Positions 1-17,524 of a stretch of 44,644 bases of DNA are shown in pieces (position 1 is the stretch's first letter; each line of letters starts with the position of its first letter). Source of the stretch: a virus. Its lineage: Duplodnaviria; Heunggongvirae; Uroviricota; Caudoviricetes. The stretch covers positions 1 to 44,644 of the IMG/VR virus record IMGVR_UViG_2563366806_000004. One strand, given 5' to 3'. A model generated the notes under the pieces. That model was not told the DNA's origin. It saw only the letters and a list, made by a program, of their open reading frames with translations, and did not search any database. Both the position numbers and the translations under genes were made by a program.

Positions 1-1284
1 TTACTTCTTCGCCTCTGCAACCACTTTACTACCCACGCCGCGGTTATTGTATTCCCACATGCGGTTGTAGTTAGTGTCATTCAGATTGCGCTGTATTTCG
101 TCGTTATCATCTACGCTGCCGGTATTACCCGCAAACGGACGATTAGAGATCACCGCATCGGCCCACGGTTTAGCCGTGTTAAAACCTTCGTTGATGGCGC
201 TATCACGGATCACCACCTGACCGTTGGTATTGGCATCAACATCCAGCGAGCGGCCCAGTTGCGCCACACCATCACCGAAAGCATTGAAACGGCTGTTTAC
301 GGCGAGGAAACCGTAGTAAATGTTGGACAGCGTAGCCGGTGCAAACACATACGCTTCTTGCTGAGTACGTGAGTTCACCACGCGGAATTCGGTGTTATCG
401 AACACCACTGCGCCGCGACCAGAAACGATATCCACATCCCCTTCAATGTAGCTGTTGGTCACCAGCGTACGCGGCTGACGATTCGTTTCCAGACGGTTCT
501 GCACACCGCTGTTGGTGACAAAGAAGGTGTTCTGACGACCGAGAATGTTAACGTTGTTAATCTGTACCTGGTCACCATCAGTACGCAGTGCCACCGCCGG
601 ATGGTTACCTGCATCTACGCTATCGCCCAGCGTGTTTTCGATGGTCAGATTTTGCAGTTGCAGGCCATTGTTTTGTGACCAGAAGACCGCAGAGCAGAGA
701 ACACCGATACTGTCGCTACGTTTGCTCTGGCAGCTATCGTACATATACCACGCTGGTTTACCTGGCATATATTTGCCGCGCGGGTTGACGTCGTGACGCC
801 AGTCGGCAGGGCTCATGCCACCATCAAGGGAAAGCCCAATCTTCACATCAATCGGTTTTTCACCTGTACCGTACAGAGTAATTCCACCCGGAGCGGCAGG
901 GACATATACCGTTCCCTGATACTCACCAGGCATCACGGCAATATACTGGCGCTTGTTGGTACGCTTGATAATTGCCGCATCTACCGCCGCCTGAATCGTG
1001 GTATGCGTTACACCTTGAGTGCCCGCCGGGCCGACAACAAATTCAGGTTGCGCAGGCAGGGTAATCGGGGAAGGATTCCACGCTGCAGCACCTGGTGTCA
1101 GGGATGCAAAATAGTGTTGAGCATCGAAATTCTGCGCTTCTTTTGCCGACAGAATCGGGCGAGAAGAGGTACCAGGCGCGGTTTGATCAGAAGGACGTTG
1201 ATCGGGCGGGGTTGAGCTACAGGCGGTCAGCGTCACGCCAAAAGCCAATGCCAGCGCCAGACGGGAAACTGAAAATGTGTTCAC
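1..1284 (-). CDS. ybhC: Pectinesterase-family lipoprotein YbhC (host chromosomal gene flanking attB-lambda)
   Basis: Complete 427-aa ORF with GTG start at 1284; N-terminal signal peptide with lipobox LTAC; sequence recognised as E. coli YbhC, the gene bordering the lambda attachment site. Confidence 0.8.
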   Translation of the reverse strand: MNTFSVSRLALALAFGVTLTACSSTPPDQRPSDQTAPGTSSRPILSAKEAQNFDAQHYFASLTPGAAAWNPSPITLPAQPEFVVGPAGTQGVTHTTIQAAVDAAIIKRTNKRQYIAVMPGEYQGTVYVPAAPGGITLYGTGEKPIDVKIGLSLDGGMSPADWRHDVNPRGKYMPGKPAWYMYDSCQSKRSDSIGVLCSAVFWSQNNGLQLQNLTIENTLGDSVDAGNHPAVALRTDGDQVQINNVNILGRQNTFFVTNSGVQNRLETNRQPRTLVTNSYIEGDVDIVSGRGAVVFDNTEFRVVNSRTQQEAYVFAPATLSNIYYGFLAVNSRFNAFGDGVAQLGRSLDVDANTNGQVVIRDSAINEGFNTAKPWADAVISNRPFAGNTGSVDDNDEIQRNLNDTNYNRMWEYNNRGVGSKVVAEAKK

Positions 1285-1330
1285 AGGTTGCTCCGGGCTA
1301 TGAAATAGAAAAATGAATCCGTTGAAGCCT

Positions 1331-1345
1331 GCTTTTTTATACTAA
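1331..1345. other. attL: attL core (15-bp lambda common core GCTTTTTTATACTAA)
   Basis: Exact lambda core sequence at the junction between host ybhC flank and the phage P' arm. Confidence 0.85.
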
Positions 1346-1425
1346 GTTGTCATTATAAAAAAGCATTGCTTATCAATTTGTTGCAACGAACAGGTCACTA
1401 TCAGTCAAAATAAAATCATTATTTG
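1346..1425. promoter_or_regulatory. Lambda P' arm with arm-type Int binding sites
   Basis: Sequence GTTGTCATTATAAAAAAGCATTGCTTATCAATTTGTTGCAACGAACAGGTCACTATCAGTCAAAATAAAATCATTATTTG recognised as the lambda P' arm, including tandem arm-type sites. Confidence 0.7.
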
Positions 1426-2489
1426 ATTTCAATTTTGTCCCACTCCCTGCCTCTGTCATCACGATACTGTGATGCCATGGTGTCCGACTTATGCCCGAGA
1501 AGATGTTGAGCAAACTTATCGCTTATCTGCTTCTCATAGAGTCTTGCAGACAAACTGCGCAACTCGTGAAAGGTAGGCGGATCCCCTTCGAAGGAAAGAC
1601 CTGATGCTTTTCGTGCGCGCATAAAATACCTTGATACTGTGCCGGATGAAAGCGGTTCACGACGAGTAGATGCAATTATGGTTTCTCCGCCAAGAATCTC
1701 TTTGCATTTATCAAGTGTTTCCTTCATTGATATTCCGAGAGCATCAACATGCAATGCTGTTGGGATGGCAATTTTTACGCCTGTTTTGCTTTGCTCGACA
1801 TAAAGATATCCATCTACGATATCAGACCACTTCATTTCGCATAAATCACCAACTCGTTGCCCGGTAACAACAGCCAGTTCCATTGCAAGTCTGAGCCAAC
1901 ATGGTGATGATTCTGCTGCTTGATAAATTTTCAGGTATTCGTCAGCCGTAAGTCTTGATCTCCTTACCTCTGATTTTGCTGCGCGAGTGGCAGCGACAGG
2001 GTTTGTTGTTATATGGCCTTCAGCTATTGCCTCTCGGAATGCATCGCTCAGTGTTGATCTGATTAACTTGGCTGATGCCGCCTTGCCCTCGTCTATGTAT
2101 CCATTGAGCATTGCCGCAATTTCTTTTGTGGTGATGTCTTCAAGTGGAGCATCAGGCAGCCCCCTCCTTATTGCTTTAATTTTGCTCATGTAATTTATGA
2201 GTGTCTTCTGCTTGATTCCTCTGCTGGCGAGGATTTTTTCGTAGCGATCAAGCCATGAATGTAACGTAACGGAATTATCACTGTTGATTCTCGCTGTCAG
2301 AGGCTTGTGTTTGTGTCCTGAAAATAACTCAATGTTGGCCTGTATAGCTTCAGTGATTGCGATTCGCCTGTCTCGGCCTAATCCAAACTCTTTACCCGTC
2401 CTTGGGTCCCTGTAGCAGTAATATCCATTGTTTCTTATATAAAGGTTAGGGGGTAAATCCCGGCGCTCATGACTTCGCCTTCTTCCCAT
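1419..2489 (-). CDS. int: Tyrosine integrase, lambda Int
   Basis: 356-aa ORF starting MGRRRSHERRDLPPNLYIRNNGYY, recognised as lambda Int; directly adjacent to attL. Confidence 0.95.
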   Translation of the reverse strand: MGRRRSHERRDLPPNLYIRNNGYYCYRDPRTGKEFGLGRDRRIAITEAIQANIELFSGHKHKPLTARINSDNSVTLHSWLDRYEKILASRGIKQKTLINYMSKIKAIRRGLPDAPLEDITTKEIAAMLNGYIDEGKAASAKLIRSTLSDAFREAIAEGHITTNPVAATRAAKSEVRRSRLTADEYLKIYQAAESSPCWLRLAMELAVVTGQRVGDLCEMKWSDIVDGYLYVEQSKTGVKIAIPTALHVDALGISMKETLDKCKEILGGETIIASTRREPLSSGTVSRYFMRARKASGLSFEGDPPTFHELRSLSARLYEKQISDKFAQHLLGHKSDTMASQYRDDRGREWDKIEIK

Positions 2490-2685
2490 TTCTGATCCTC
2501 TTCAAAAGGCTACCTGTTACTGGTCGATTTAAGTCAACCTTTACCGCTGATTCGTGGAACAGATACTCTCTTCCATCCTTAACCGGAGGAGGGAATATCC
2601 TGCATTCGCGCACCCATCGACGAACTGTTTCAAGGCTTCTTGGACGTCGCTGGCGTGCGTTCCACTCCTGAAGTGTCAAGTACAT
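2467..2685 (-). CDS. xis: Excisionase, lambda Xis
   Basis: 72-aa ORF MYLTLQEWNARQRRPRSLETVRRWVRE, overlapping the int start by 23 nt as in lambda. Confidence 0.9.
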   Translation of the reverse strand: MYLTLQEWNARQRRPRSLETVRRWVRECRIFPPPVKDGREYLFHESAVKVDLNRPVTGSLLKRIRNGKKAKS

Positions 2686-2900
2686 CGCAAAGTCTCCGCA
2701 ATTACACGCAAGAAAAAACCGCCATCAGGCGGCTTGGTGTTATTTCAGTTCTTCAATTCGAATATTGGTTACGTCTGCATGTGCTATCTGCGCCCACAGC
2801 ATCCAGTGGTCATAGCAGTCGTTGATGTTCTCCGCTTCGATAACCCTGTTGAATGGCTCTCCATTCCATTCTCCTGTGACTCGGAAGTGCATTTATCATC

Positions 2901-2929
2901 TCCATAAAACAAAACTCGCCGTAGCGAGT
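2901..2929 (-). terminator. Putative intrinsic terminator downstream of the 132-aa gene
   Basis: Hairpin ACTCGC-cgta-GCGAGT followed on the minus strand by TTTGTTTTATGG. Confidence 0.45.
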
Positions 2930-2992
2930 TCAGATAAAAGAAATCCCCGCGAGTGCGAGGATTGTTATTCACCTTTGACGGCAAGTTGCAGG

Positions 2993-3391
2993 TTAGCCAT
3001 GGTTAACCTCCTGCTCAATATTTTTAAGGTCATTTTCCGCATACAGTATTGCAGTCCTTGCTGCTCGCAACCGTGCTTTGGTGTTCTTTTCTTCGCGCTC
3101 AAGGTTGGCTACAGACTCGCGCAACTCATCACGGCGACGATGGAGTTGCTCAATCTCAGTGACGATATGCTCACCATCAGTAGCTACCTGCAGGATGTGC
3201 TCGAAGGGGTCAATAACGCAGCCGCACTTTGTGCAACGAACAACGCGATCAGTTTCACAAACCTCGATAGCCCGATGCTTACAGCTATGTTGTATGTAGT
3301 TTTTTCTGTCAGTTACAGTGATGTTCAGCAGTTTCTCTTCATTGCGCTTTGGCTGCACCAGAGAGATGACGTTGTCGCTTTCATTTTCCAT
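2993..3391 (-). CDS. Hypothetical protein with Cys/His-rich putative zinc-binding region
   Basis: 132-aa ORF; start overlaps stop of upstream gene (ATGA); CKHRAIEVCETDRVVRCTKCGC cysteine cluster. Confidence 0.55.
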   Translation of the reverse strand: MENESDNVISLVQPKRNEEKLLNITVTDRKNYIQHSCKHRAIEVCETDRVVRCTKCGCVIDPFEHILQVATDGEHIVTEIEQLHRRRDELRESVANLEREEKNTKARLRAARTAILYAENDLKNIEQEVNHG

Positions 3392-5655: not shown

Positions 5656-5816
5656 ATCGCATTCAGATGTTTGTTTTGATTTACTGACGGAAAAGAATTT
5701 CTCTTAAGCAATTCCTCTCTCGATGGCATTGGCTTTACGCGTTGGCGAATAATCATTTCTGCCGGAAGAATGCCGGGATTGTATGCAAGTCCTCTCATGG
5801 TAAATTCCTCAGTCAT
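5634..5816 (-). CDS. Small hypothetical protein (start uncertain)
   Basis: 60-aa reading frame from internal ATG whose start overlaps the stop of the upstream 98-aa gene (ATGACTGA); alternative longer ORF 5634..5981 overlaps that gene. Confidence 0.3.
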
Positions 5817-8259: not shown

Positions 8260-9228
8260 TTAGTAGGTTATTTTTGTTGCGAATACTTCGCCTTTTACGA
8301 TGGCTGTTATGATATTTTTAGCAACATCTTCTGATGCGCCAACCTTGATAAGGTCAGCAAGTATTTTGTTATTTACTTCTTTCCGGTGAGCTTTATCCTT
8401 TGCTCTACGCTCTTCTTCTTCCTTGATTCTTTTTTCTTCTGCTATTCTGGCTTGCTCTTTTGCTTCAGCCTCGCGCCGGATTCGTTCAGCCTCCTCCTGT
8501 GCTTTTCGGCGTTCTGCTTCAATTGCCGCCTGCTTTTCTCTTTCAGCTCGTTCTGCTGCCTCTTTTGCTTCGCGCTGTGCTCGTTGCTCGGCTTCAATGC
8601 GTTCACGCTCTGCACGTTCCGCTGCGGCCTTAGCTTCTGCTTCTCGCCTTGCTGCTGATTCAATTTCGGCTTTTGCCTTTGCTTCGGCTTCTGCTCTGGC
8701 TTTCTCTTCAGCTTCTCTTTTTAAGCGTTCTTCATGCTCTCGCTTTTCCTGCTCCGCTTTGAGTCTTGCCTCTTCTCTTTGGCGGTCAAATTCGCGATCC
8801 ATCAAAATAGCTATTTCATGATCAGACTCAATTTGCTTTGCGAGAGCTTCAGCTGCTGCCTTAGCTTCTTCTTCGGCTTTAATCCGCGCCTGTTCCTCCT
8901 CATAATCAGTAAGAGGCTGGCGAGCCTTGGCTTTCAGTTCATCAAGGCGATCGCGCACTGTCTTGCGGTTGGCATCAATTAGCTTTGGAATTTCCTTCAG
9001 TTCAGCAACAAGGTCTTTGCCAAGACCATCGAGATATGTTTTCGTCTGCGCAACTTTATACGCCAGAGAAGCGATCTCCTTTCTGCCCTTTGCCGTTGTG
9101 ATATCAGGCACAAAGGACATAACTTCACGTTCAACCTTTTGAAGGATTTCTTCAATCTGGTCTGCAGACTGAAATACAGTCATTGCATTTGCTTTTTCAA
9201 TAAAAACTAAGTCTGTTACTTCACTCAT
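8260..9228 (-). CDS. Lys/Ala/Glu/Arg-rich coiled-coil protein (TolA-like repetitive helical region)
   Basis: 322 aa from ATG at 9228 preceded by GGAGGA; the track ORF extends to 9282 but would run through a terminator hairpin; ~170-aa low-complexity stretch of EAKAKAE/ERAERE repeats. Confidence 0.6.
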   Translation of the reverse strand: MSEVTDLVFIEKANAMTVFQSADQIEEILQKVEREVMSFVPDITTAKGRKEIASLAYKVAQTKTYLDGLGKDLVAELKEIPKLIDANRKTVRDRLDELKAKARQPLTDYEEEQARIKAEEEAKAAAEALAKQIESDHEIAILMDREFDRQREEARLKAEQEKREHEERLKREAEEKARAEAEAKAKAEIESAARREAEAKAAAERAERERIEAEQRAQREAKEAAERAEREKQAAIEAERRKAQEEAERIRREAEAKEQARIAEEKRIKEEEERRAKDKAHRKEVNNKILADLIKVGASEDVAKNIITAIVKGEVFATKITY

Positions 9229-9240
9229 ATATCCTCCATC

Positions 9241-9267
9241 AAAAAAATCGCCCTCACATCGGAGGGC
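9241..9267 (-). terminator. Intrinsic terminator upstream of the coiled-coil gene
   Basis: Stem GCCCTC/GAGGGC with 6-nt loop followed on the minus strand by a run of seven T. Confidence 0.55.
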
Positions 9268-9362
9268 AAAGAAGATTTCCAATAATCAGAACAAGTCGGC
9301 TCCTGTTTAGTTACGAGCGACATTGCTCCGTGTATTCACTCGTTGGAATGAATACACAGTGC

Positions 9363-9575
9363 TTATTCGCGAGCTTTGAGCATGGCATCAGCAATAAAGT
9401 AGGCATCATCTGCTAATTCTTTGTACTGTGGTGAATTCTGTCCACCGCCAAAGGAATGTCCGTCCCATCTGCGCACTATTGCTGCCATAGCCTTAGCAGC
9501 GAAGTAATCACGTAATGTCGCATCACTTGCCATTTCTGGGCGTTTGATATCTGCTTCATAAAACTCGCACATCAT
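9363..9575 (-). CDS. Hypothetical protein
   Basis: 70-aa ORF, stop/start overlap with the upstream gene. Confidence 0.4.
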   Translation of the reverse strand: MMCEFYEADIKRPEMASDATLRDYFAAKAMAAIVRRWDGHSFGGGQNSPQYKELADDAYFIADAMLKARE

Positions 9576-9850
9576 TCACCTCCCAGAGCCTTGCTGATTG
9601 CTGCCTTGGCTCGTTTGTATTCGGTTAACTCTCTGCACCCTTCGTCATGCTCGTAAAGGAAGACAAGCTCTTGCAGTGCTTCAAGCAAATCAGGAGCTGC
9701 TGCTATCAGTAGCGCATCCTCCCTTTCATTTCTTGTTGCTGCTTCAATGTATGTGTCACCAATCGTCACACCATGGAACGTAGTCATCATCTCGTTGACG
9801 TTTCTAACCGTGTACTTCCATTTACCAGGCGTACCCTTAAACTCTTTCAT
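9572..9850 (-). CDS. Hypothetical protein
   Basis: 92 aa from ATG at 9850 with upstream GAGGTGGA; track ORF starts at GTG 9856. Confidence 0.45.
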   Translation of the reverse strand: MKEFKGTPGKWKYTVRNVNEMMTTFHGVTIGDTYIEAATRNEREDALLIAAAPDLLEALQELVFLYEHDEGCRELTEYKRAKAAISKALGGE

Positions 9851-9857
9851 ATCCACC

Positions 9858-9898
9858 TCTGTTGTTTATGCCAAAAATAAAGGCCGACTATGCGGCCT
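9858..9898. repeat. Direct repeat copy 1 (~40 bp, contains terminator hairpin)
   Basis: TCTGTTGTTTATGCCAAAAATAAAGGCCGACTATGCGGCCT, repeated with two differences at 10401..10439. Confidence 0.8.
9871..9898 (-). terminator. Intrinsic terminator after the 156-aa gene
   Basis: Stem AGGCCG/CGGCCT with loop ACTATG, followed on the minus strand by TTATTTTTGG. Confidence 0.55.
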
Positions 9899-10367
9899 AG
9901 TAGAATACCCAATTTTCTGTTTCTTGGTTGTGTCCAAAGTTATATTCAATATCTGGTGTTGATGTATCAATATTCTTCATCCCATCAACAAGAGTTGATA
10001 CAACAGCCAAATCTTGTTTGATTCTCATCAAATGGTATTTCTTCCGGCGCAATAAACTTTCAATGGCAAGTTTCTTCGTCGGGAACGCAAAAGATCTTTC
10101 TGCATTTTTTGCTACTTTCTTAATTGCATATCTATTTCTCCTTTGTTTCCATTCCTGTAACCACTGATTTGGTGCTGGTTTAAAATTAACAATCCAATGC
10201 GCAGGAACCAACCATGCATAATGCTCTGTCTGATGAAAAGCTATATATTGAAGTGCGAATATTTTGATTCCATCTTCTTCAACTGTCGCTTGGAATCTCC
10301 AGAAAACAGGCATTCCATCATGTTCAGTTTCTGATTCAGGAAAAGGTACGCTCCATGATTTTGTCAT
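9897..10367 (-). CDS. Hypothetical protein encoded by an AT-rich cassette
   Basis: 156-aa ORF with AT-rich codon usage unlike neighbours; own leader TTATTTGAGGTGAGATATG and own terminator; no recognisable motif. Confidence 0.55.
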   Translation of the reverse strand: MTKSWSVPFPESETEHDGMPVFWRFQATVEEDGIKIFALQYIAFHQTEHYAWLVPAHWIVNFKPAPNQWLQEWKQRRNRYAIKKVAKNAERSFAFPTKKLAIESLLRRKKYHLMRIKQDLAVVSTLVDGMKNIDTSTPDIEYNFGHNQETENWVFY

Positions 10368-10400
10368 ATCTCACCTCAAATAATTCAGTGCAGTGTTTAT

Positions 10401-10439
10401 TCTGTTGTTTATGCCAAAAGAAGGCCGACTATGCGGCCT
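10401..10439. repeat. Direct repeat copy 2 (contains terminator hairpin)
   Basis: TCTGTTGTTTATGCCAAAAGAAGGCCGACTATGCGGCCT. Confidence 0.8.
10412..10439 (-). terminator. Intrinsic terminator after the membrane-protein gene
   Basis: Same AGGCCG-actatg-CGGCCT hairpin as at 9881..9898, followed on the minus strand by a T-rich tract. Confidence 0.55.
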
Positions 10440-10443
10440 GAAA

Positions 10444-10893
10444 TTACTTAACCAATGATGCTGCATATTCGATAAGGTAAAGATTTGGGGTCAGCCAAAT
10501 TTTTAACCAAGTCATATTGGTTACTACACCAATAATAAAAATCCCCCACAGAGTCAAAACTACAACCAATGGCATGATAAGAAGATTAATATCACCTTTG
10601 CTATCCCAAACCATTGTCGGCCTGTATTTGGGATTTCCTTTCTCCCATGAATATCCTTCATCACCGATTTTACCTGTCTCAACTCTTTGGCACTGCTTCT
10701 TCATAAACCAGAAAACCAGTGGGATTGTTAGAATGGCCATTAATGTTTTAATCAGACTGTCAACCATATTCCATAGCAGCAACTGATGAACAACATCAGG
10801 AATCTGTGCCTGGCTAAATGAAACAGCCGCGTCTATTCCATTACTGGCTTTTTGCAGTAGTTCTACGAGAATCTTGTTTGCTTGTTCTTCCAT
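10444..10893 (-). CDS. Two-pass membrane protein encoded by an AT-rich cassette (possible superinfection-exclusion or abortive-infection function)
   Basis: 149-aa ORF; two hydrophobic helices (LIKTLMAILTIPLVFWFM and INLLIMPLVVVLTLWGIFIIGVV); leader identical to that of the 156-aa gene; position left of N is where lambda and P22 carry sieB. Confidence 0.55.
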   Translation of the reverse strand: MEEQANKILVELLQKASNGIDAAVSFSQAQIPDVVHQLLLWNMVDSLIKTLMAILTIPLVFWFMKKQCQRVETGKIGDEGYSWEKGNPKYRPTMVWDSKGDINLLIMPLVVVLTLWGIFIIGVVTNMTWLKIWLTPNLYLIEYAASLVK

Positions 10894-10947
10894 ATCTCAC
10901 CTCAAATAAGTGGTTTGCTGCGAAAGTAAATACGCTTAAGTTACCTG

Positions 10948-11085
10948 TTATTTATCCCACCAAGTTCCGTATCTATCTATCCAGTTACACCAATCATCGA
11001 CACTCCATTTTGTTGTGTCGCATTTTGGCAACTGGCATGAATATCTACCTTCTTTGTAAAGTCGGCGTTTGACTTTCTTGAGCAT
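10948..11085 (-). CDS. Small Cys-containing hypothetical protein
   Basis: 45-aa ORF MLKKVKRRLYKEGRYSCQLPKCDTTKWSVDDWCNWIDRYGTWWDK directly after the N stop codon with GAGGTGAG Shine-Dalgarno; below the ORF-track length cut-off. Confidence 0.4.
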   Translation of the reverse strand: MLKKVKRRLYKEGRYSCQLPKCDTTKWSVDDWCNWIDRYGTWWDK

Positions 11086-11093
11086 GGCTCACC

Positions 11094-11426
11094 TCAATCG
11101 TAATAAGCTGGAATTGATTTTCCGCGTTGCTTCTGGCGGCCTGAGCAGGTCAACCCCATTTCACTGCGTGGCTTGCTGTACCATGTGCGCTGATTCTTGC
11201 GCTCAATACGCTGCAGGTTGCTTTCAATCTGTTCGTGGTATTCAGCCAGCACCGTAAGGTCTATCGGATTCAGTGCGCTTTCTACTCGTGATTTCGGTTT
11301 GCGATTCAGCGAGAGAATAGGGCGGTTAACTGGTTTTGCGCTTACCCCAACCAACAGGGGATTTGCTGCTTTCCATTGAACCTGTTTCTCTGCGCGACGT
11401 TCGCGGCGGCGTGTTTGTGCATCCAT
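11094..11426 (-). CDS. N: Antitermination protein N
   Basis: 110-aa ORF MDAQTRRRERRAEKQVQWKAANPLLVGVSAKPVNRPILSL, recognised as lambda N; nutL lies upstream. Confidence 0.9.
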   Translation of the reverse strand: MDAQTRRRERRAEKQVQWKAANPLLVGVSAKPVNRPILSLNRKPKSRVESALNPIDLTVLAEYHEQIESNLQRIERKNQRTWYSKPRSEMGLTCSGRQKQRGKSIPAYYD

Positions 11427-11694
11427 CTGGATTCTCCTGTCAGTTAGCTTTGGTGGTGTGGTGGCTGGTAGTCTAGCTCCAGCTTGTTGAGTCTCATTCG
11501 GAGGGGTATAACCGGCACCCCAGCGATTTTTCCATGCGACAACGTGCGCGTTATGGCGGCCTTATCGCCCGCGGCTCCCCATCTCGTCCACGCTATTGCT
11601 AGCGTTGGGAGCGCTTCACCGCTCAACAGTAGGTAAGCACTTGCCAGTGACTAGCTGGCTTCACCACACCCCAAAGCCTTCTGCTTTGAATGCT

Positions 11695-11725
11695 GCCCTT
11701 CTTCAGGGCTAAATTTTTAAGAGCC
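11695..11725 (-). promoter_or_regulatory. nutL: nutL (boxB hairpin GCCCTGAAGAAGGGC plus boxA-like GCTCTTA)
   Basis: Reverse complement of 11691..11724 reads GCTCTTAAAAATTTAGCCCTGAAGAAGGGCAGCA, matching lambda nutL. Confidence 0.8.
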
Positions 11726-11764
11726 TCACCTTCATGGTGGTCAGTGCGTCCTGTTGATGGCTAG

Positions 11765-11828
11765 ATAATCACAAATTGTGTTCGTGCTGTCAACACGAAA
11801 TGTGATTGTTTTTATCACAACACGTGTT
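11765..11828 (-). promoter_or_regulatory. pL promoter with three operator sites (oL)
   Basis: Three 15-bp sites of form ATCACA-N3-YGTGTT at 11768..11782, 11792..11806, 11814..11828; minus-strand -35 TTGACA (11793..11788) and -10 GATTAT (11770..11765), 17-nt spacer. Confidence 0.65.
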
Positions 11829-11865
11829 TTCATTGATTTTTAAGGTAATTTAATTTTCTTTGGGC

Positions 11866-11889
11866 AACAAAAAACCCGCCGAAGCGGGT
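11866..11889 (-). terminator. Intrinsic terminator after the repressor gene
   Basis: Stem ACCCGC/GCGGGT with loop CGAA, followed on the minus strand by TTTTTTGTTG. Confidence 0.6.
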
Positions 11890-11914
11890 TTGATGTTTTT
11901 AAGTGGCGGGTATA

Positions 11915-12556
11915 TCAGGAGAATTTCATCATCATCTGCACTGCTACGCCGATTATCTTGCAGTTGCCGTCGATTGGGATCAACGGATAGGCAGGGTTAA
12001 GCCCTTTCAGGTATTTGTTACCGCCATCAATGATTAGCTTCTTGAACGTGGCTTCATTAGCATCTGTCAGCTTCGCAACTACCAGGCTTCCATTAACGGC
12101 TTCCTTTCCAGTGTCGAACAGAACCAGCATACCCTCAGGAACGCTAAGGCCGGTAGGAGCTGTCATTGAGTCGCCCTGAACCCTGAGCCAGAAGGCGTCA
12201 CCGACAACGTGACAATCTGATTCATACCACTCATCCACTGCCTGAGGGTTGTACGGCTCTACGGCCTCACTCCATGCACCTGCGCTAACCCAGCTAATCA
12301 ACGGAAACTTTTCCCCTGGCTTGTATTGTCCCTGATAGTTGTCGCCAAAAAGCAGTTCTGCCGGAGCGACGCCCAAAGCTTTAGCTATTACCTCTGCGTC
12401 ATCAACACTAACGCTTCTGGTTCCTGATTCATAGTTGCCGATCCGAGATTGTGAAGCCCAGCCGCAAAGCTCCGCCAGAGCCTTCTGTGAAAGCCCTTTA
12501 TCTTCCCGTAATCGCTTGATACGCGCGGCGATAGTTTCTGTTCTGTTCATGCGCAT
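11915..12556 (-). CDS. cI: CI-like prophage repressor (XRE-type HTH plus S24 LexA-like autopeptidase domain)
   Basis: 213-aa ORF; N-terminal HTH (LSQKALAELCGWASQSRIGNYESG); Ala-Gly cleavage site (SAGAW); GDSM serine motif and downstream Lys; flanked by oL and oR; not lambda cI. Confidence 0.8.
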   Translation of the reverse strand: MRMNRTETIAARIKRLREDKGLSQKALAELCGWASQSRIGNYESGTRSVSVDDAEVIAKALGVAPAELLFGDNYQGQYKPGEKFPLISWVSAGAWSEAVEPYNPQAVDEWYESDCHVVGDAFWLRVQGDSMTAPTGLSVPEGMLVLFDTGKEAVNGSLVVAKLTDANEATFKKLIIDGGNKYLKGLNPAYPLIPIDGNCKIIGVAVQMMMKFS

Positions 12557-12561
12557 TTTAT

Positions 12562-12627
12562 ATCACATTCCGTGGTTTAAGGCTTTACACGATTTGTGTT
12601 GACTATCAATCACAATATGTGTTTAAT
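12562..12627 (+). promoter_or_regulatory. pR promoter with three operator sites (oR)
   Basis: 15-bp sites at 12562..12576, 12586..12600, 12609..12623 matching ATCACA-N3-YGTGTT; -35 TTGACT 12599..12604, -10 TTTAAT 12622..12627. Confidence 0.65.
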
Positions 12628-12660
12628 AAAGACTGAGTGAACTAGCTCTTAAGGAAACCT

Positions 12661-12876
12661 ATGAACAACATTGCCAACGAACGGAAAAAGCTTGGCATCA
12701 CTCAATCTGCGTTAGCAGGCGCGTGTGGCTGGAACCAGTCCCGCTTAGCTAACTACGAGTCAGGTATCCGGACTCCAGATTTAGAGTCGTGCCGTCGCCT
12801 GGTAAAGGCGCTGAATAAATTGGGGAGCAAGACAACGCTAGATGGCTTGTTCCCGCCGGAACACAAAGCCGCTTAA
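12661..12876 (+). CDS. cro: Cro-like HTH regulator
   Basis: 71-aa ORF with XRE-type HTH (LGITQSALAGACGWNQSRLANYESG), first gene rightward of oR, RBS AAGGAAAC. Confidence 0.7.
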   Translation: MNNIANERKKLGITQSALAGACGWNQSRLANYESGIRTPDLESCRRLVKALNKLGSKTTLDGLFPPEHKAA

Positions 12877-12884
12877 GACATTCC

Positions 12885-12916
12885 CGCTCTTACACATCCC
12901 AGCCCTGAAAAAGGGC
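12885..12916 (+). promoter_or_regulatory. nutR: nutR (boxA CGCTCTTA and boxB GCCCTGAAAAAGGGC)
   Basis: boxA at 12885..12892 and boxB hairpin at 12902..12916 match lambda nutR. Confidence 0.8.
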
Positions 12917-12995
12917 ATCAAATTAAACCACACCTATGGTGTATGCATTTATTTGCATACATTCAATCAATTGTTATCTAAGGAAATACTTACAT

Positions 12996-13274
12996 ATGCA
13001 ACTTACAAGTACTCGCAAGAAAGCGAATGCAATTACAAGCAACATCCTGAATCGAATTGCTGTACGTGGTCAGCGAAAGGTTGCCGACGCGTTAGGGATT
13101 AATGAATCGCAAATTTCGCGATGGAAAGACAGCTTCATCCCAAAAATGGGAATGCTTCTGGCTGTTCTTGAATGGGGTGTTGAAGACGAGGAGTTGGCGG
13201 AACTGGCTAAGAAAGTAGCCAGAATGCTGACAAAAGAAAAAGCCCCGAAGAACGGCGAATTCTTCGAGGCCTGA
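12996..13274 (+). CDS. cII: Transcriptional activator CII
   Basis: 92 aa from ATG 12996 with the lambda cII leader TTATCTAAGGAAATACTTACATATG; KVADALGINESQISRWK...PKMGMLLAVLEWGV resembles lambda CII. Confidence 0.8.
   Translation: MQLTSTRKKANAITSNILNRIAVRGQRKVADALGINESQISRWKDSFIPKMGMLLAVLEWGVEDEELAELAKKVARMLTKEKAPKNGEFFEA
13231..13270 (-). terminator. Minus-strand intrinsic terminator overlapping the cII 3' end (oop-RNA-like position)
   Basis: 11-bp stem with one mismatch (GCCCCGAAGAA/TTCTTCGAGGC), 7-nt loop, followed on the minus strand by TTTTTCTTTTG. Confidence 0.45.
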
Positions 13275-13308
13275 TGTAGAAAGACTGGATCAATCCACAG
13301 GAGTAATT

Positions 13309-13953
13309 ATGACATACGAAAATGACAAATTCCAGGTTCTGAAGAGCATGAAGGTGCCAGATGATTTTAAATCAAATGGCTTTGTTTATGTGCTTTCTAA
13401 TGAGTGCATGCCAGGAATTTATAAGATTGGGATGACTAAGCATTCACCAGAAGTTAGGGCTAAAGAAATTTCAGCCTCTACTGGCGTTCCTAAGCCATTT
13501 AAGGTGATAGCAGCCTTTCATTCAAATAATCCCGCATCAGATGAAAAACTCATTCATAAAGCCTTTGCAAAAGAGAGGCTTAGTGATAATCGAGAGTTTT
13601 TCAAGCTTGAAGATAATGAGCTTTCTGAATCTCTAAATGAAATAAGGGCGCTGGTTGGCCCTGAAAGAAATGGCGAGACGGCAGAATACGCAATTTACGA
13701 CTCATTCATTTCTTTTCGCCATGAAAATGAGCTTGATCTTAATGAGGAGCTTATAGAGCAAGGTCTGGGTAGTGTAGTTGGTCATCTTCCTGCGGTGAAA
13801 AATTTCCTTATTCGCGCCGGAATTGATTACGCGAAGCAACTGATAAGCAAATATAACTCATCGATAGTTATTAATACAGATGGCAGTGTGGTGATGGTTA
13901 AGTCTCTTGAAGCCCAATGCTTTGATGCGGAGGTTGGAAATGAGCCTGGCTGA
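13309..13953 (+). CDS. T5orf172 / GIY-YIG-like domain protein (accessory gene between cII and O)
   Basis: 214-aa ORF, RBS CAGGAG; N-terminal NGFVYVLSNECMPGIYKIGMTKHSPEVRAKEIS...PFKVIAAFHSNN...REFFKL resembles the T5orf172 (GIY-YIG-like) domain; AT-rich; 3' end overlaps O start by 14 nt. Confidence 0.6.
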   Translation: MTYENDKFQVLKSMKVPDDFKSNGFVYVLSNECMPGIYKIGMTKHSPEVRAKEISASTGVPKPFKVIAAFHSNNPASDEKLIHKAFAKERLSDNREFFKLEDNELSESLNEIRALVGPERNGETAEYAIYDSFISFRHENELDLNEELIEQGLGSVVGHLPAVKNFLIRAGIDYAKQLISKYNSSIVINTDGSVVMVKSLEAQCFDAEVGNEPG

Positions 13954-14782
13954 AGTATTTTACCTGTCGAAGAGTGAACCTGTTGAACAGGAGCGAAGAG
14001 TGGCTGATATCGATGATGGTTACACCAGATTCGCTAACGAGCTGCTGGAAGCTATCGCAAGTGCTGATTTAACCGCTCGCCAGTTGAAAGTTATGCTGGC
14101 CTACGTCCGGAAAACATATGGATTCAATAAGAAAACAGATCGAATAGCCGATGAGCAAATTGCTCAGTTAACAGGACTGTCAAGGCAGAATGTTAACAAG
14201 GCTAAAAAAGAACTGATTTCAATGAATTGCCTGTTTATGGATGGAAATCAAATCGGTGTAAACAGTGAGGTATCTGCGTGGCAATTCAGCAAGTGTCTCC
14301 AAGTTAGCAACTTTGTCTCGAAGTTAGAGACAAAAAATGTCTCCAAATTAGAGACACTCAATGTCTCGAAGTTAGAGACACACAAAAGACATTCTTTAAA
14401 GACAAAAGAAAATATTAATAAACCCCCTATATCCCCCAAAAAAGTTTCTCAGAAGTTCGACCCGCTAGAAACAGAGTTGCCTGATTGGTTATCAGCAGAA
14501 ACATGGTTGTCGTGGGTTACCTATCGCAAGGAGATAGGTAAGTCGATCAAGTCTAAGCAAAGTGTCACTCAGGCTATCAACGTTCTAAGCAGAAGTCTGG
14601 AGAAGGGATATACACCTGAAGAAATTATAAACCAGAGCATCGCCAGTGGTTGGCAGGGGATTTTTGAACCCAAGACTCCAAAGGGGAAATCTCAACCGAG
14701 GCCGCAGCAGCGAGCTATGCAGGAAAACTTTGCCGCCAAAGATTACGGGCAAACTGAAATGCCTTCATGGGCGCAGGAGTGA
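13940..14782 (+). CDS. O: Replication initiator, lambda O-like (N-terminal iteron-binding domain)
   Basis: 280 aa from ATG 13940 (RBS GGAGG); ERRVADIDDGYTRFANELLEA...LKVMLAYVRKTYGFNK resembles lambda O N-terminus; iterons inside the gene. Confidence 0.75.
   Translation: MSLAEVFYLSKSEPVEQERRVADIDDGYTRFANELLEAIASADLTARQLKVMLAYVRKTYGFNKKTDRIADEQIAQLTGLSRQNVNKAKKELISMNCLFMDGNQIGVNSEVSAWQFSKCLQVSNFVSKLETKNVSKLETLNVSKLETHKRHSLKTKENINKPPISPKKVSQKFDPLETELPDWLSAETWLSWVTYRKEIGKSIKSKQSVTQAINVLSRSLEKGYTPEEIINQSIASGWQGIFEPKTPKGKSQPRPQQRAMQENFAAKDYGQTEMPSWAQE
14294..14380. repeat. ori: Replication origin iterons (four ~19-bp repeats at 20-24 bp spacing)
   Basis: TGTCTCGAAGTTAGAGACA-type repeats at 14294, 14314, 14338, 14362, followed by an A/T-rich tract 14390..14450. 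Confidence 0.75.
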
Positions 14783-14784
14783 AT

Positions 14785-15678
14785 ATGAATACGACAAATG
14801 GTTACAATCTGGCACTGCAAAGGCAACTTGTAGACTCAAAAATCAATGACATTTCTGATCTGAAACAGAAACTTGAGTTTAGCAAAATTGGATCAGCATC
14901 AGATGGAATGTCAGTTACCAGCACAGTGGAAGAGTGCGAGAAACACGGTAAATATACTTCCTATGAGAAATATCTGACCATCTCAGGAAAAAGAATTACT
15001 TCAAGTAAATCTGAGTGCCCACAGTGCCTTGAGGAGAAAATTCGTAAGAAAGAGATTGAACGTGAGCAGGCAGAACAAAGAGCAAGACAATCAAAAATTG
15101 AATATTTGTTGAATTCTCTCAATATTCCAGAGAGGTTCAAAAATTGCACTCTTCAGAATTATGAGCCTGTTAACGATGATGCAAAGCGAGTTCTTAAGGT
15201 ATGCCAGGCATATGCCAGTAAGTGGCCTGAACGCCTTCAGAAAGGTGGCGGACTGGTCATGTGTGGTAAGCCTGGAACTGGAAAGAACCACCTTGCACTG
15301 GCTATCGCTAGGCACGCCATTATCGAGCATCAAAGCTCTGTGATATTTACCACTGCGTTGAAAATTGCCAGAGAGTACAAATCAACATGGTCTAAGGCCG
15401 CAACCAGAACTGAAGAAGAAGTCATTAGGCAATTTACGCATCCTGACTTGTTAATAATCGATGAGGTTGGCGTGCAGTTCGGCAGTGATGCTGAAAAGCT
15501 AATCATGTTCGAAATTATCAACACCAGATATGAATACATGAAGCCAACAATCCTGATTAGTAATCAGAGCAAAGATGAACTTTCGGCATTCATTGGTGAG
15601 CGTGTTATTGACAGGATGAATGATGGCGGCGGATGCACCCTTGCGTTTACATGGGATAGTTACAGGAGCAGATCGTGA
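14785..15678 (+). CDS. DnaC/IstB-like AAA+ helicase loader
   Basis: 297 aa from ATG 14785; Walker A GKPGTGKNHLALAIA and Walker B LLIIDEVG; occupies the position of lambda P. Confidence 0.75.
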   Translation: MNTTNGYNLALQRQLVDSKINDISDLKQKLEFSKIGSASDGMSVTSTVEECEKHGKYTSYEKYLTISGKRITSSKSECPQCLEEKIRKKEIEREQAEQRARQSKIEYLLNSLNIPERFKNCTLQNYEPVNDDAKRVLKVCQAYASKWPERLQKGGGLVMCGKPGTGKNHLALAIARHAIIEHQSSVIFTTALKIAREYKSTWSKAATRTEEEVIRQFTHPDLLIIDEVGVQFGSDAEKLIMFEIINTRYEYMKPTILISNQSKDELSAFIGERVIDRMNDGGGCTLAFTWDSYRSRS

Positions 15679-15965
15679 CTGGAAAAGAAATCATCCTGGA
15701 ATATCTGAAAACTCATGAACAATTCTCCCCACATGAATTAGCTCTGATCACCGGAATACCAAATAACAGAATCGCTCAAGCAGCAAGGCATATGGTGAAA
15801 CAAGGGCATTTGAGTGTTGTTGAGCGTAAGTGGAAGACGGTTATTTATGCGAAACGCAAAGTGAAGAAGGAGCCAATTAAAAGAAATCCAGATGGTACGG
15901 GGTGGGGATGTGCAAATCCAATGACGGCGTTTATTAATAGGGCGCTTATGGAGGTAAGGCAATGA
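15675..15965 (+). CDS. Hypothetical protein with possible winged-helix DNA-binding fold
   Basis: 96-aa ORF with GTG start overlapping upstream stop; ELALITGIPNNRIAQAARHMVKQGHL resembles an HTH. Confidence 0.45.
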   Translation: MTGKEIILEYLKTHEQFSPHELALITGIPNNRIAQAARHMVKQGHLSVVERKWKTVIYAKRKVKKEPIKRNPDGTGWGCANPMTAFINRALMEVRQ

Positions 15966-16231
15966 ATAAAAAACAATTAGCCATTCTCGAAAAGGCATGG
16001 GATGCACAAATATCATGCGCTTTGAAAGAACAGGCACTACCAATAATCCAGACCAAATCGAAAATAGCCAGGCAGTTATGCGATGACGGATTCCTGAACG
16101 AAGTTGAGATTACGCGCCAGATGGTAACGTTCAAAGGGTATGAGATAAATCATCATGGTATAGCGGCGTATTGCTCCCACCTTCCTGATGACGTTGACAT
16201 TGATGAAATGGAAAGGGAGATGAAGCAATGA
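15962..16231 (+). CDS. Hypothetical protein
   Basis: 89-aa ORF, ATGA start overlap with upstream gene. Confidence 0.45.
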   Translation: MNKKQLAILEKAWDAQISCALKEQALPIIQTKSKIARQLCDDGFLNEVEITRQMVTFKGYEINHHGIAAYCSHLPDDVDIDEMEREMKQ

Positions 16232-16256
16232 CCATCTACATCACTGAGCTAATAAC

Positions 16257-16288
16257 AGGCCTGCTGGTAATCGCAGGCCTTTTTATTT
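16257..16288 (+). terminator. Intrinsic terminator in the early-right operon (tR2-like position)
   Basis: 8-bp stem AGGCCTGC/GCAGGCCT with loop TGGTAATC, followed by TTTTATTT. Confidence 0.55.
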
Positions 16289-16317
16289 GGGGGAGAGGGA
16301 ATTGGAGGCTTTAAGAA

Positions 16318-16533
16318 ATGAGTACGATAGCTGAGCTTGTCAGGGCTAATTTTCGTGAAGAGTTGGTGCGTTGGTATCGGTATCGTTCATCGTCCAGTTT
16401 GCCGATTGATGAGTTGTATGAGCATTCACCTGCTGCACGACGCTATCCGCGTGACCGTGTTCTTCGACGGTTGTCCAAACTCAACAATGAGTTTCAGCGC
16501 AACAGAATTATTCGGAGTCTGGATTTAAAGTAA
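16318..16533 (+). CDS. Hypothetical protein
   Basis: 71-aa ORF with RBS GGAGG upstream. Confidence 0.45.
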   Translation: MSTIAELVRANFREELVRWYRYRSSSSLPIDELYEHSPAARRYPRDRVLRRLSKLNNEFQRNRIIRSLDLK

Positions 16534-16543
16534 AGGAGTGAGC

Positions 16544-16750
16544 ATGACAAATCAGCAGCAAATAGAGTTCATCCTTGAGCAGATTCGAAAAATGCGAGAA
16601 AAGAACCAGCCAGACATGATGGAAATATGGAGACGCCAGCAGGAAGAATACCGCAAGCATATTTTTGGTGAGAGAAAACAGGATGACTGGAGCCTATATG
16701 GCTATGGCACCAGGACAAATAAAAACGGATATAGCCTTTACACATATTGA
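16544..16750 (+). CDS. Hypothetical protein
   Basis: 68 aa from ATG 16544 with RBS AAGGAG. Confidence 0.45.
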   Translation: MTNQQQIEFILEQIRKMREKNQPDMMEIWRRQQEEYRKHIFGERKQDDWSLYGYGTRTNKNGYSLYTY

Positions 16751-16758
16751 GGAATTCC

Positions 16759-17169
16759 ATGAAACAGACAATTTTCCTCAGGAGTAAGCAACAACAGCAA
16801 GCCGCAATCACCGCCATCCTCGCAACACCACTCGATAAAGACAAGCCAGTTACCATCCGCATTACTGACTACAAGCGCAACCTTGACCAGAACGCAAAAT
16901 TTCACGCGATGCTGGCGGATATCGCAAGTCAGGTTCAATGGTGCGGCAAATGGTTAAAACCAGAACAATGGAAGGTTTTGTTGATAAGCGGTCATGCAGT
17001 GGCAACAAAGCAGGAAGCTGATGTTTTGCCCGGGCTTGAAGGCGAATACGTCAACATTCGCGAAAGTAGCGCGCAGATGAGCGTGAAGCGCATGGCAAGC
17101 CTGATTGAGTACACGACAGCATGGGCTATTGGTCAGGGTGTCAGATTTACCGACAGGAGGTACGAATGA
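16759..17169 (+). CDS. ninB: NinB-like recombination protein
   Basis: 136 aa from ATG 16759; [39 protein letters not shown] resembles lambda NinB. Confidence 0.7.
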
Positions 17170-17348
17170 GACGACAGCGACGAAGCATCACCGACATCAT
17201 CTGCGAAAACTGCAAATACCTTCCAACGAAACGCTCCAGAAATAAACGCAAGCCAATCCCAAAAGAATCTGACGTAAAAACCTTCAACTACACGGCTCAC
17301 CTGTGGGATATCCGGTGGCTTAGAGAACGTGCGAGGAAAACAAGGTGA
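17166..17348 (+). CDS. ninE: NinE
   Basis: 60-aa [63 protein letters not shown], near-identical to lambda NinE. Confidence 0.8.
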
Positions 17349-17524
17349 TTGACCAAAATCGAAGTTACGAACAAGGAAGTGTCGAGCGAGCTTTAACGTG
17401 CGCTAACTGCGGTCAGAAGCTGCATGTGCTGGAAGTTCACGTGTGTGAGCGTTGTATATATGAATGCTTAAATATGGTGGAACATAATGAGAAATATAAG
17501 CAACATAGACGAATTAAGAAATAA
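17345..17524 (+). pseudogene. ninF: ninF, 5' fragment interrupted by an HNH-gene insertion
   Basis: GTG-start ORF encodes ...ESVERALTCANCGQKLHVLEVHVCE as in lambda NinF, then diverges into AT-rich inserted sequence and stops at 17522..17524. Confidence 0.65.

Follow-up and report, generated by a model that had tools for sequence, protein, structure and literature searches.

Lambdoid phages are textbook mosaic genomes, in which modules are exchanged at short conserved boundary sequences, and what drives this exchange is debated. One such boundary raises the question considered here: what does a nuclease-like gene do between cII and the replication initiator gene O? The gene is carried by IMG/VR virus record IMGVR_UViG_2563366806_000004 (Caudoviricetes), of which positions 1 to 44,644 were analysed; this whole stretch is called the window. 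The encoded protein is a T5orf172/GIY-YIG nuclease of known kind, with an unusual C-terminal domain and strict synteny with a replication initiator. Relatives of the gene invariably occupy this slot, which makes a selfish or competitive nuclease probable. A homing-endonuclease-like role is favoured below, tentatively and at somewhat less than an even chance. The principal features are as follows.

13309..13953, plus strand: T5orf172/GIY-YIG-family gene, 214 amino acids
13366..13647, plus strand: N-terminal T5orf172 nuclease domain, about residues 20-113
13648..13950, plus strand: family-specific acidic C-terminal domain, residues 114-214
13275..13314, plus strand: conserved lambdoid cII/replication boundary, containing the Shine-Dalgarno (SD) sequence AGGAG (13299-13303) and ATGACA
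13315..13984, plus strand: segment differing from empty alleles, delimited by comparison of junctions with lambda, N7, mEpX1, the prophages L016/L017 and a second occupied allele, L015

The open reading frame (ORF) starts with ATG and lies between cII, which ends at 13274, and O, whose ATG is at 13940. An earlier note on this DNA had described a 214-residue frame in this position, overlapping the O start by 14 nt, and the coordinates confirm both points. Its statement that lambda has only the oop region in this slot also holds: 32 nt separate the lambda cII stop from the O start. Lambda, phages N7 and mEpX1, and the Escherichia coli prophages L016 and L017 have the flanks in common with the window and are without the gene. 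The backgrounds of occupied and empty alleles are 98.7-99.6% identical. The comparison of cII-O junctions that the earlier note had proposed gives exact end points. The differing segment stands in place of 42 nt (AATACAGCAAAAATACTCAACTTCGGCAGAGGTAACTTTGCC) of the lambda-type O 5' end and includes the first 45 nt of O. The 42-nt stretch lost from the occupied allele is identical from lambda to N7 and mEpX1. The empty junction reads ...CCACAGGAGTcATTATGACA followed by AATACAGCAAAAATACTCAACTTCGGCAGAGGTAACTTTGCC and then GAACAGGAGC...; the occupied junction, in the window and in L015 with its different cII type, reads ...CCACAGGAGTaATTATGACA followed by TACGAA...(gene)...GAACCTGTT and then GAACAGGAGC.... 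Two different cII types each occur in occupied and empty versions. The gene had been called inserted: it is indeed optional with respect to lambda and to near-identical phages and prophages, but the differing segment also swaps the 5' end of O.

The left junction of the occupied allele falls in a boundary annotated as 'bsq5 boundary sequence' in Sf6. All 40 nt of this boundary recur unchanged (100% identity) in Huey, HK446, HK544, mEp213, mEpX2 and others; behind it, these phages have different small first cistrons. In the window its AGGAG stands 5 nt upstream of the nuclease gene ATG. By sequence comparison, the nuclease gene has captured the SD and ATGACA that start O in the empty-allele phages. 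The ribosome-binding site that the earlier note had regarded as the gene's own is this conserved boundary signal, which elsewhere serves O. O in turn has an SD of its own, GGAGG at 13929-13933, within the 3' end of the nuclease gene. A wider family sample, drawn from GTDB genomes, IMG/VR and metagenome contigs, comprises 89 loci with the family C-terminal domain (72 distinct proteins). The start region is GGAGTAATTATG-like in 72 of these loci and is usually preceded by ACTGGATCAATTCACA. A second boundary type, CACTGTGTTACGCCAAGTAACAGGAGTAATTATG, lies about 40 nt upstream of the family gene instead of ACTGGATCAATTCACA in loci L053, L019, L099, L100, L070 and L058; the two types end in an identical SD and ATG.

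The distribution of the gene is sporadic among near-identical genomes, beside a conserved essential gene. The gene is also rare: among 5426 complete E. coli genomes the occupied allele is present in 19, and the empty lambda-type junction in 1343. The gene is labelled 'GIY-YIG nuclease family protein' in 19 E. coli genomes. Phage records hold a single occupied allele and 134 empty lambda-type junctions. Of the isolated phages in the collection, Escherichia phage CurroJimenez_Bas106 (Bas106) alone has the nuclease gene, annotated there as the 'hypothetical protein' Bas106_0049. Thirteen close alleles are all intact, with a ratio of non-synonymous to synonymous polymorphism (pN/pS) of 0.33, the pattern of purifying selection across the whole ORF. 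The guanine-cytosine (GC) content of the gene is 0.405 (0.353 at third codon positions), compared with 0.466 for cII, 0.437 for O, 0.421 for the downstream DnaC-like gene and 0.503 for the whole window. The earlier description as AT-rich is accurate in direction, the value lying below those of the neighbours (0.42-0.47), but the difference is modest.

The N-terminal domain is well defined. Residues 24-112 match Pfam T5orf172 (PF10544) with 58 bits against a cut-off of 20 (E=1.4e-15; profile positions 1-100 of 101), and MUG113 (PF13455) matches the same domain with 59 bits against a cut-off of 22.3. The predicted structural model resembles the GIY-YIG nucleases SLX1, I-TevI and UvrC, with SLX1 the best match among solved structures. 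Profile match and predicted fold together bear out the T5orf172/GIY-YIG assignment that the earlier note had made for the N-terminus. All 24 homologues, the most distant at 33% identity, share the motifs GFVY27, Y38-K-I-G41, R50, E79, H83 and R95-E96-F-F unchanged, and these fit the T5orf172/GIY-YIG motif described for the phage ICP1 enzyme Odn. Putative counterparts of the GIY-YIG residues whose presence the earlier note had left to be checked (Y27, Y38, G41, R50 and E96) can thus be named. The catalytic Glu is required for nuclease activity in two related enzymes: Odn, by mutation E180A (PMC8263062), and SNIPE, by E414A (PMC13190303). A PDB sequence search with the family profile gave no match at E<=10, and an hhalign comparison of that profile with I-TevI, using an approximate I-TevI sequence, gave no signal; the mapping of catalytic residues therefore rests on motifs and literature. 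An NCBIfam profile search of the protein gave no meaningful match, and the PHROGs matched, phrog_8430 and phrog_16524, are both families of unknown function. By its profile matches the N-terminal domain is a T5orf172 endonuclease domain of the GIY-YIG superfamily, with the putative catalytic core residues intact.

How might such a protein act at this boundary? The reading that we favour, with the reserve stated above, sees the protein as a 'marker exclusion' nuclease of homing-endonuclease-like type, produced early from pR; we infer its cleavage, its target and its homing alike. (i) The gene is an optional first cistron of the lambdoid replication operon and has taken over the boundary SD and ATG(ACA) of O. 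(ii) Translation would be handed on to O through the 14-nt overlap, with the new SD and a variant O N-terminus. (iii) Early transcription would come from pR after N antitermination. (iv) The protein would cut co-infecting or resident lambdoid genomes with an empty cII-O junction, whose 42 nt the occupied allele lacks. (v) Repair by recombination would then tend to pass on the cassette along with the O 5' end that belongs to it. Genes of the T5orf172 type are regarded as a homing-endonuclease family that lies next to essential genes, at boundaries of genetic exchange (PMC10448857). The exact presence or absence, the loss of a conserved, target-like 42-nt stretch, and the borrowing of the O start with the supply of a new one all fit this picture. 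An identical nuclease allele stands behind three different cII types, and C-terminal domains 76% identical precede either of two initiator classes; the gene appears to assort independently of both flanks. No paper was found on this T5orf172 subfamily or on a GIY-YIG gene at a lambdoid cII-O junction.

Several observations weigh against a homing nuclease, and the first group concerns targeting. The C-terminal domain of some 100 residues is confidently predicted (predicted local distance difference test, pLDDT, 80.7). Its isoelectric point (pI) is about 4.4, and this acidity is shared by all 24 homologues, with pI values of 4.1-5.9 and net charges of -2 to -11. The DNA-binding modules of characterised homing enzymes are typically basic. 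Among 1.84 billion representative proteins the domain has no relatives outside its own family; it matched no known fold and has no zinc-finger cysteines. No DNA-binding domain is recognisable in the nuclease protein that could serve as a separate sequence-specific module. The homing GIY-YIG/T5orf172 enzymes characterised so far do have a separate DNA-binding module, for example a CapR-type zinc finger (PMC10448857). Derivation of the C-terminal domain from the DNA-binding domain of the neighbouring initiator, as in Odn, was considered and rejected (hhalign probability <1% against both initiator classes). An apparent fusion of the C-terminal domain to O, P0032, resembles a frameshifted read-through in metagenomic sequence and was left out of account.

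The second group concerns the company that the gene keeps, for which the neighbours in the window are needed.

12996..13274, plus strand: cII-type activator, left neighbour (PF05269, E=1.8e-42; phrog_191), with an antisense terminator in its 3' end
13940..14782, plus strand: replication initiator O (PF04492, E=3.4e-36; phrog_678), with the variant N-terminus MSLAEVFYLSKSEPV
14785..15678, plus strand: DnaC-like helicase loader, not lambda P (IstB_IS21/phrog_50)

Enough downstream DNA for assessment was available at 85 of the 89 family loci, and in each case the ORF of a replication initiator begins -73 to +13 nt from the nuclease gene stop. The gene is accordingly no idiosyncratic insertion, as the earlier note might have been taken to imply. 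The initiator is of the lambda O type (PF04492) at 29 loci and of an unrelated 'MARSRNIKPGFF' type (phrog_17247/16167) at 56. A fixed slot, whichever of two unrelated initiator classes follows, means that a target within the initiator gene cannot be general. The upstream neighbour is cII at 60 loci and a YdaT-like gene at 15. In the lineage of the window, nucleotide identities for the nuclease gene, O core and dnaC are 82, 87 and 74.5% to L124 and 66, 74 and 66% to L125, and cII departs from this pattern. The variant O N-terminus travels with the nuclease gene in both L124 and L125. On these figures the gene co-diverges with the O-DnaC module in this lineage, which is how a long-established resident would behave, and not an element that often invades anew. 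Its discordance is with the left flank (three cII types, YdaT) and only occasionally with initiator class. Finally, no decayed copies of the gene were seen, and ordinary lambdoid recombination at the boundary could produce presence and absence without any nuclease. The earlier note had held that conservation in all relatives as part of the replication module would speak against an accessory gene. That condition describes the locus by half: the gene co-diverges with O-DnaC but is optional in near-identical relatives.

The origin of the slot can be read in part from the O N-terminus. In locus L005 the O frame behind the nuclease gene begins M-NTAEILNF, close to lambda MTNTAKILNF, with an ATGA stop/start overlap. 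The N-terminus in the window, MSLAEVFYL, is a diverged version of the L005/lambda sequence. Since L005 has kept a lambda-like N-terminus, the ancestral event looks like an insertion immediately behind the initiator start codon. In the same locus (L005, 5633-5700) the called O-like start at 5696 is probably too far downstream, and an ATG overlapping the nuclease stop opens the MNTAEILNF frame.

Strict synteny and co-divergence with O-DnaC are points in favour of a different role, that of a partner-recruited nuclease of the replication module. Here the C-terminal domain would dock on a replisome or initiation factor or on a host protein, the enzyme would act on the DNA of the host, a competitor or a satellite, or on intermediates of replication, to the phage's advantage, and its mobility would be that of ordinary mosaic recombination. 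The position immediately upstream of the initiator at 85 of 85 loci implies co-expression or translational coupling. Purifying selection and the intactness of all copies agree with such a role, and an acidic, family-specific C-terminal domain is more like a protein-interaction module than a DNA binder. SLX1, the best structural match, is a GIY-YIG nuclease that needs a partner subunit, SLX4. An origin-directed T5orf172 nuclease exists in Odn (PMC8263062), and in phrog_8130 an initiator N-domain and a T5orf172 domain appear to be combined. Set against this, the gene is dispensable: most lambdoid phages with a 99%-identical O are without it. The C-terminal domain is neither homologous to the initiators nor tied to initiator class (a tracking of class was rejected on L057 and L058, whose C-terminal domains are 76% identical and whose initiator classes differ), and an initiator is therefore unlikely as partner. 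No candidate partner has emerged so far, and the loaders vary too (P or DnaC). Recruitment by a partner is a serious reading, if a rather doubtful one.

A more specific form of partner recruitment, which we consider unlikely, has the protein supply the catalysis in a two-part, replication-coupled nuclease. The C-terminal domain would be captured by a component of the replisome or of initiation, from phage or host. The GIY-YIG domain would then be sent to origins or forks of competing lambdoid replicons, satellites or host, or would nick the phage's own replication intermediates. Such an enzyme would explain why the family always heads the replication operon, in front of either initiator class. 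Related arrangements were noted elsewhere. The profile of phrog_8130 (434 positions) is matched both by the T5orf172 domain (window 13378-13629, profile 181-257) and by the N-domain of the class-0 initiator (L009 5694-5969, profile 11-102). This suggests a phage family in which, as in Odn, a T5orf172 nuclease is fused to the DNA-binding domain of an initiator; a search by tblastn and inspection of two Vibrio phage loci found no concrete fusion of this type. HNH endonuclease genes are annotated beside class-0 initiator homologues in Bordetella phage vB_BaM-IFTN3 (OM293952.1) and Pseudomonas phage vB_PaeS-D14C (BK061477.1), and nuclease genes adjoining replication initiators may be a wider pattern.

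Expression bears on a further possibility. The promoter scan found no promoter-like site upstream of the nuclease gene on its own strand. From its position the gene is expected to be read from pR with the help of N antitermination; its product would appear early after infection or induction, but not in the lysogen. A role as a prophage-borne anti-phage defence or superinfection-exclusion nuclease (a moron), like PDC-S57 or SNIPE/PD-lambda-1, would draw support from PADLOC matches to PDC-S57 (PDLC05041, E=4.5e-29) and PD-Lambda-1 (E=4e-12). The PDC-S57 profiles are of similar length (212-245) and also have the T5orf172 domain at the N-terminus, and the gene is optional, with a somewhat higher AT content than the genes beside it. 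These matches are confined, however, to residues 21-113, and the C-terminal half of PDC-S57 and the transmembrane (TM) and DUF4041 parts of SNIPE are unmatched. The family is always in a replication operon and never in a defence island. The gene follows cro and cII in the pR operon and lacks a promoter-like site upstream on its strand; it should therefore be silent in the lysogen, and a lysogen-expressed defence role is disfavoured. The connection with phage-defence loci to which the earlier note had pointed is accordingly weak, and we judge defence to be improbable.

The gene also alters a putative antisense element of the lambda type. In lambda, oop ends at a terminator within the cII 3' end, and its promoter, Po, lies in the 5' end of the gene that comes next.

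13232..13298, minus strand: putative oop-like antisense RNA, its 5' end placed by homology to lambda and phage 21 oop
13329..13334, minus strand: slot of the oop -35, inside the nuclease gene, reading TGGAAT (3/6) compared with lambda TTGAGT

A minus-strand terminator is kept in the 3' end of cII, as the earlier note had said: the terminator scan places a hairpin stem of 14 pairs at 13272..13240, followed by a T-run. A 72-nt oop-like transcript would fold with -27.7 kcal/mol (z=-5.0). Its 5' part, GUGGAUUGAUCCAGU, resembles lambda GUUGAUAGAUCCAGU, and its position matches that of the annotated oopRNA of phage 21, which begins 10 nt before the O ATG. An Rfam scan of 11000-16000 at E<=1 returned chance-level matches only (mir-290, DicF, GcvB) and no curated oop family. 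The oop -10, CATAAT, is the reverse complement of ATTATG (13306-13311) and is retained because it lies inside the boundary and start codon. The -35 slot falls within the nuclease gene, where the earlier note had expected any oop promoter to lie, and the promoter scan calls no promoter there.

These changes are one argument for supposing that nuclease activity is not what the gene contributes. It could be a catalytically silent, domesticated T5orf172 regulator like PLE CapR, or a near-neutral passenger whose main effect comes from the lost oop -35 and the altered O N-terminus. The earliest description of T5orf172 was as a DNA-binding domain, and CapR shows it in domesticated form (PMC10448857). 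The putative catalytic residues are invariant in the family and the whole ORF is under purifying selection, both of which tell against this pair of readings, and an acidic protein is a poor fit for a regulator that binds DNA. As to a passenger, the lambda-type -35 is lost (TTGAGT to TGGAAT) with the -10 and terminator kept. According to one report, Bas106, which carries the nuclease allele, makes clear plaques and fails to lysogenise K-12, although its lysogeny genes show nothing obviously wrong (bioRxiv 10.1101/2024.09.12.612763). The Bas106-type early region is found in integrated prophages, however, so the nuclease gene does not preclude lysogeny. Both versions seem to us improbable.

The remainder of the window places the gene in a temperate setting. 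The window is an E. coli chromosomal prophage adjoining ybhC. Positions 1-3000 hold host DNA (ybhC) first, then a tyrosine integrase and an excisionase, which shows that the window is a prophage, integrated in the chromosome on its ybhC side, and not a free phage genome. The early region (9055-17451) is 99.9% identical to Bas106 (PQ850599.1). Identity of the window with Bas106 itself was rejected, as this is a chromosomal prophage and only the early region is 99.9% identical. Further features of that region are as follows.

11915-12556, minus strand: CI-like S24 repressor
12661-12876: Cro-like helix-turn-helix protein
14314..14385: presumed ori iterons within O, 24-nt unit in 3 copies (Tandem Repeats Finder)

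The 24-nt tandem units, TGTCTCGAAGTTAGAGACACACAA, are presumably the ori iterons; within O they code for a repeated VSKLET motif, and one unit was picked up as a terminator-like hairpin. About 570 nt of the window (10384-10952) are absent from the otherwise 99.9%-identical Bas106. This segment contains a minus-strand ORF of 149 amino acids (10444-10893) with hydrophobic stretches, possibly a membrane-protein moron in the pL operon.

Comparison with known systems sets the gene among several relatives and apart from each. Other optional first cistrons, the homologues of Sf6 gene 42 and HK97 gp53 and the 'hypothetical protein' of HK446, mEp213 and others, share the identical 40-nt boundary, SD and ATG in the same cII-replication slot; they are small proteins of about 50 residues without a nuclease domain. 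The T4 Seg proteins and I-TevI resemble the protein in build (an N-terminal catalytic domain of about 95 residues and a C-terminal domain of about 100, in a total of some 200-250). They resemble it also in location, between conserved genes and with a neighbour-gene sequence that differs at the junction of plus and minus alleles. The T5orf172 putative homing endonucleases of ICP1, T5-like and other phages (Barth, Dunham & Seed 2023, PMC10448857) belong to the same domain family and are likewise free-standing, sporadic and beside an essential gene at an exchange boundary. About 87% of these proteins carry zinc-finger DNA-binding repeats of the CapR/DUF723/DUF4397 type (PMC10448857), whereas the protein here has an acidic, cysteine-poor C-terminal domain with no fold match. 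The gene differs from theirs also in its temperate lambdoid prophage setting and its one fixed slot.

PDC-S57, only a candidate defence system, is the best profile match for the N-terminal domain and has a similar overall length and domain order. The match is limited to positions 3-94 of 212, the C-terminal halves differ, and the gene here lies in a replication operon, not a defence island. SNIPE/PD-lambda-1 (PMC13190303) has a related GIY-YIG/T5orf172 domain. SNIPE is a host-encoded defence protein of about 490 residues with a TM segment and a DNA-binding DUF4041, none of which parts occurs in the nuclease protein. The protein, acidic and of 214 residues, matches profile positions 355-450 of 496 only and gives no Pfam match to DUF4041.

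What makes the locus useful is its setting: a nuclease gene at the well-known cII/O boundary. Occupied and empty alleles occur there naturally at 99% identity, and one carrier, Bas106, is an E. coli phage that can be grown in culture. The idea that nuclease genes mark and drive exchange boundaries would be directly testable in the lambda system. A T5orf172 subfamily without the usual DNA-binding module also raises the question of how the nuclease is targeted. Should this prove an ordinary selfish or accessory gene, the value lies in better annotation of a recurrent 'hypothetical protein' of Enterobacterales prophages. A functional parallel to a replication-directed enzyme is Odn (ICP1 gp88, PMC8263062), a T5orf172 nuclease tied to an initiator and origin, with the catalytic Glu conserved. 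Odn is a covalent chimera with a RepA_N iteron-binding domain, whereas the link here is gene adjacency only and the C-terminal domain shows no homology to the initiators next to it. Were the two-part, replication-coupled reading true, the protein would be a trans-acting counterpart of this fused, origin-directed nuclease.

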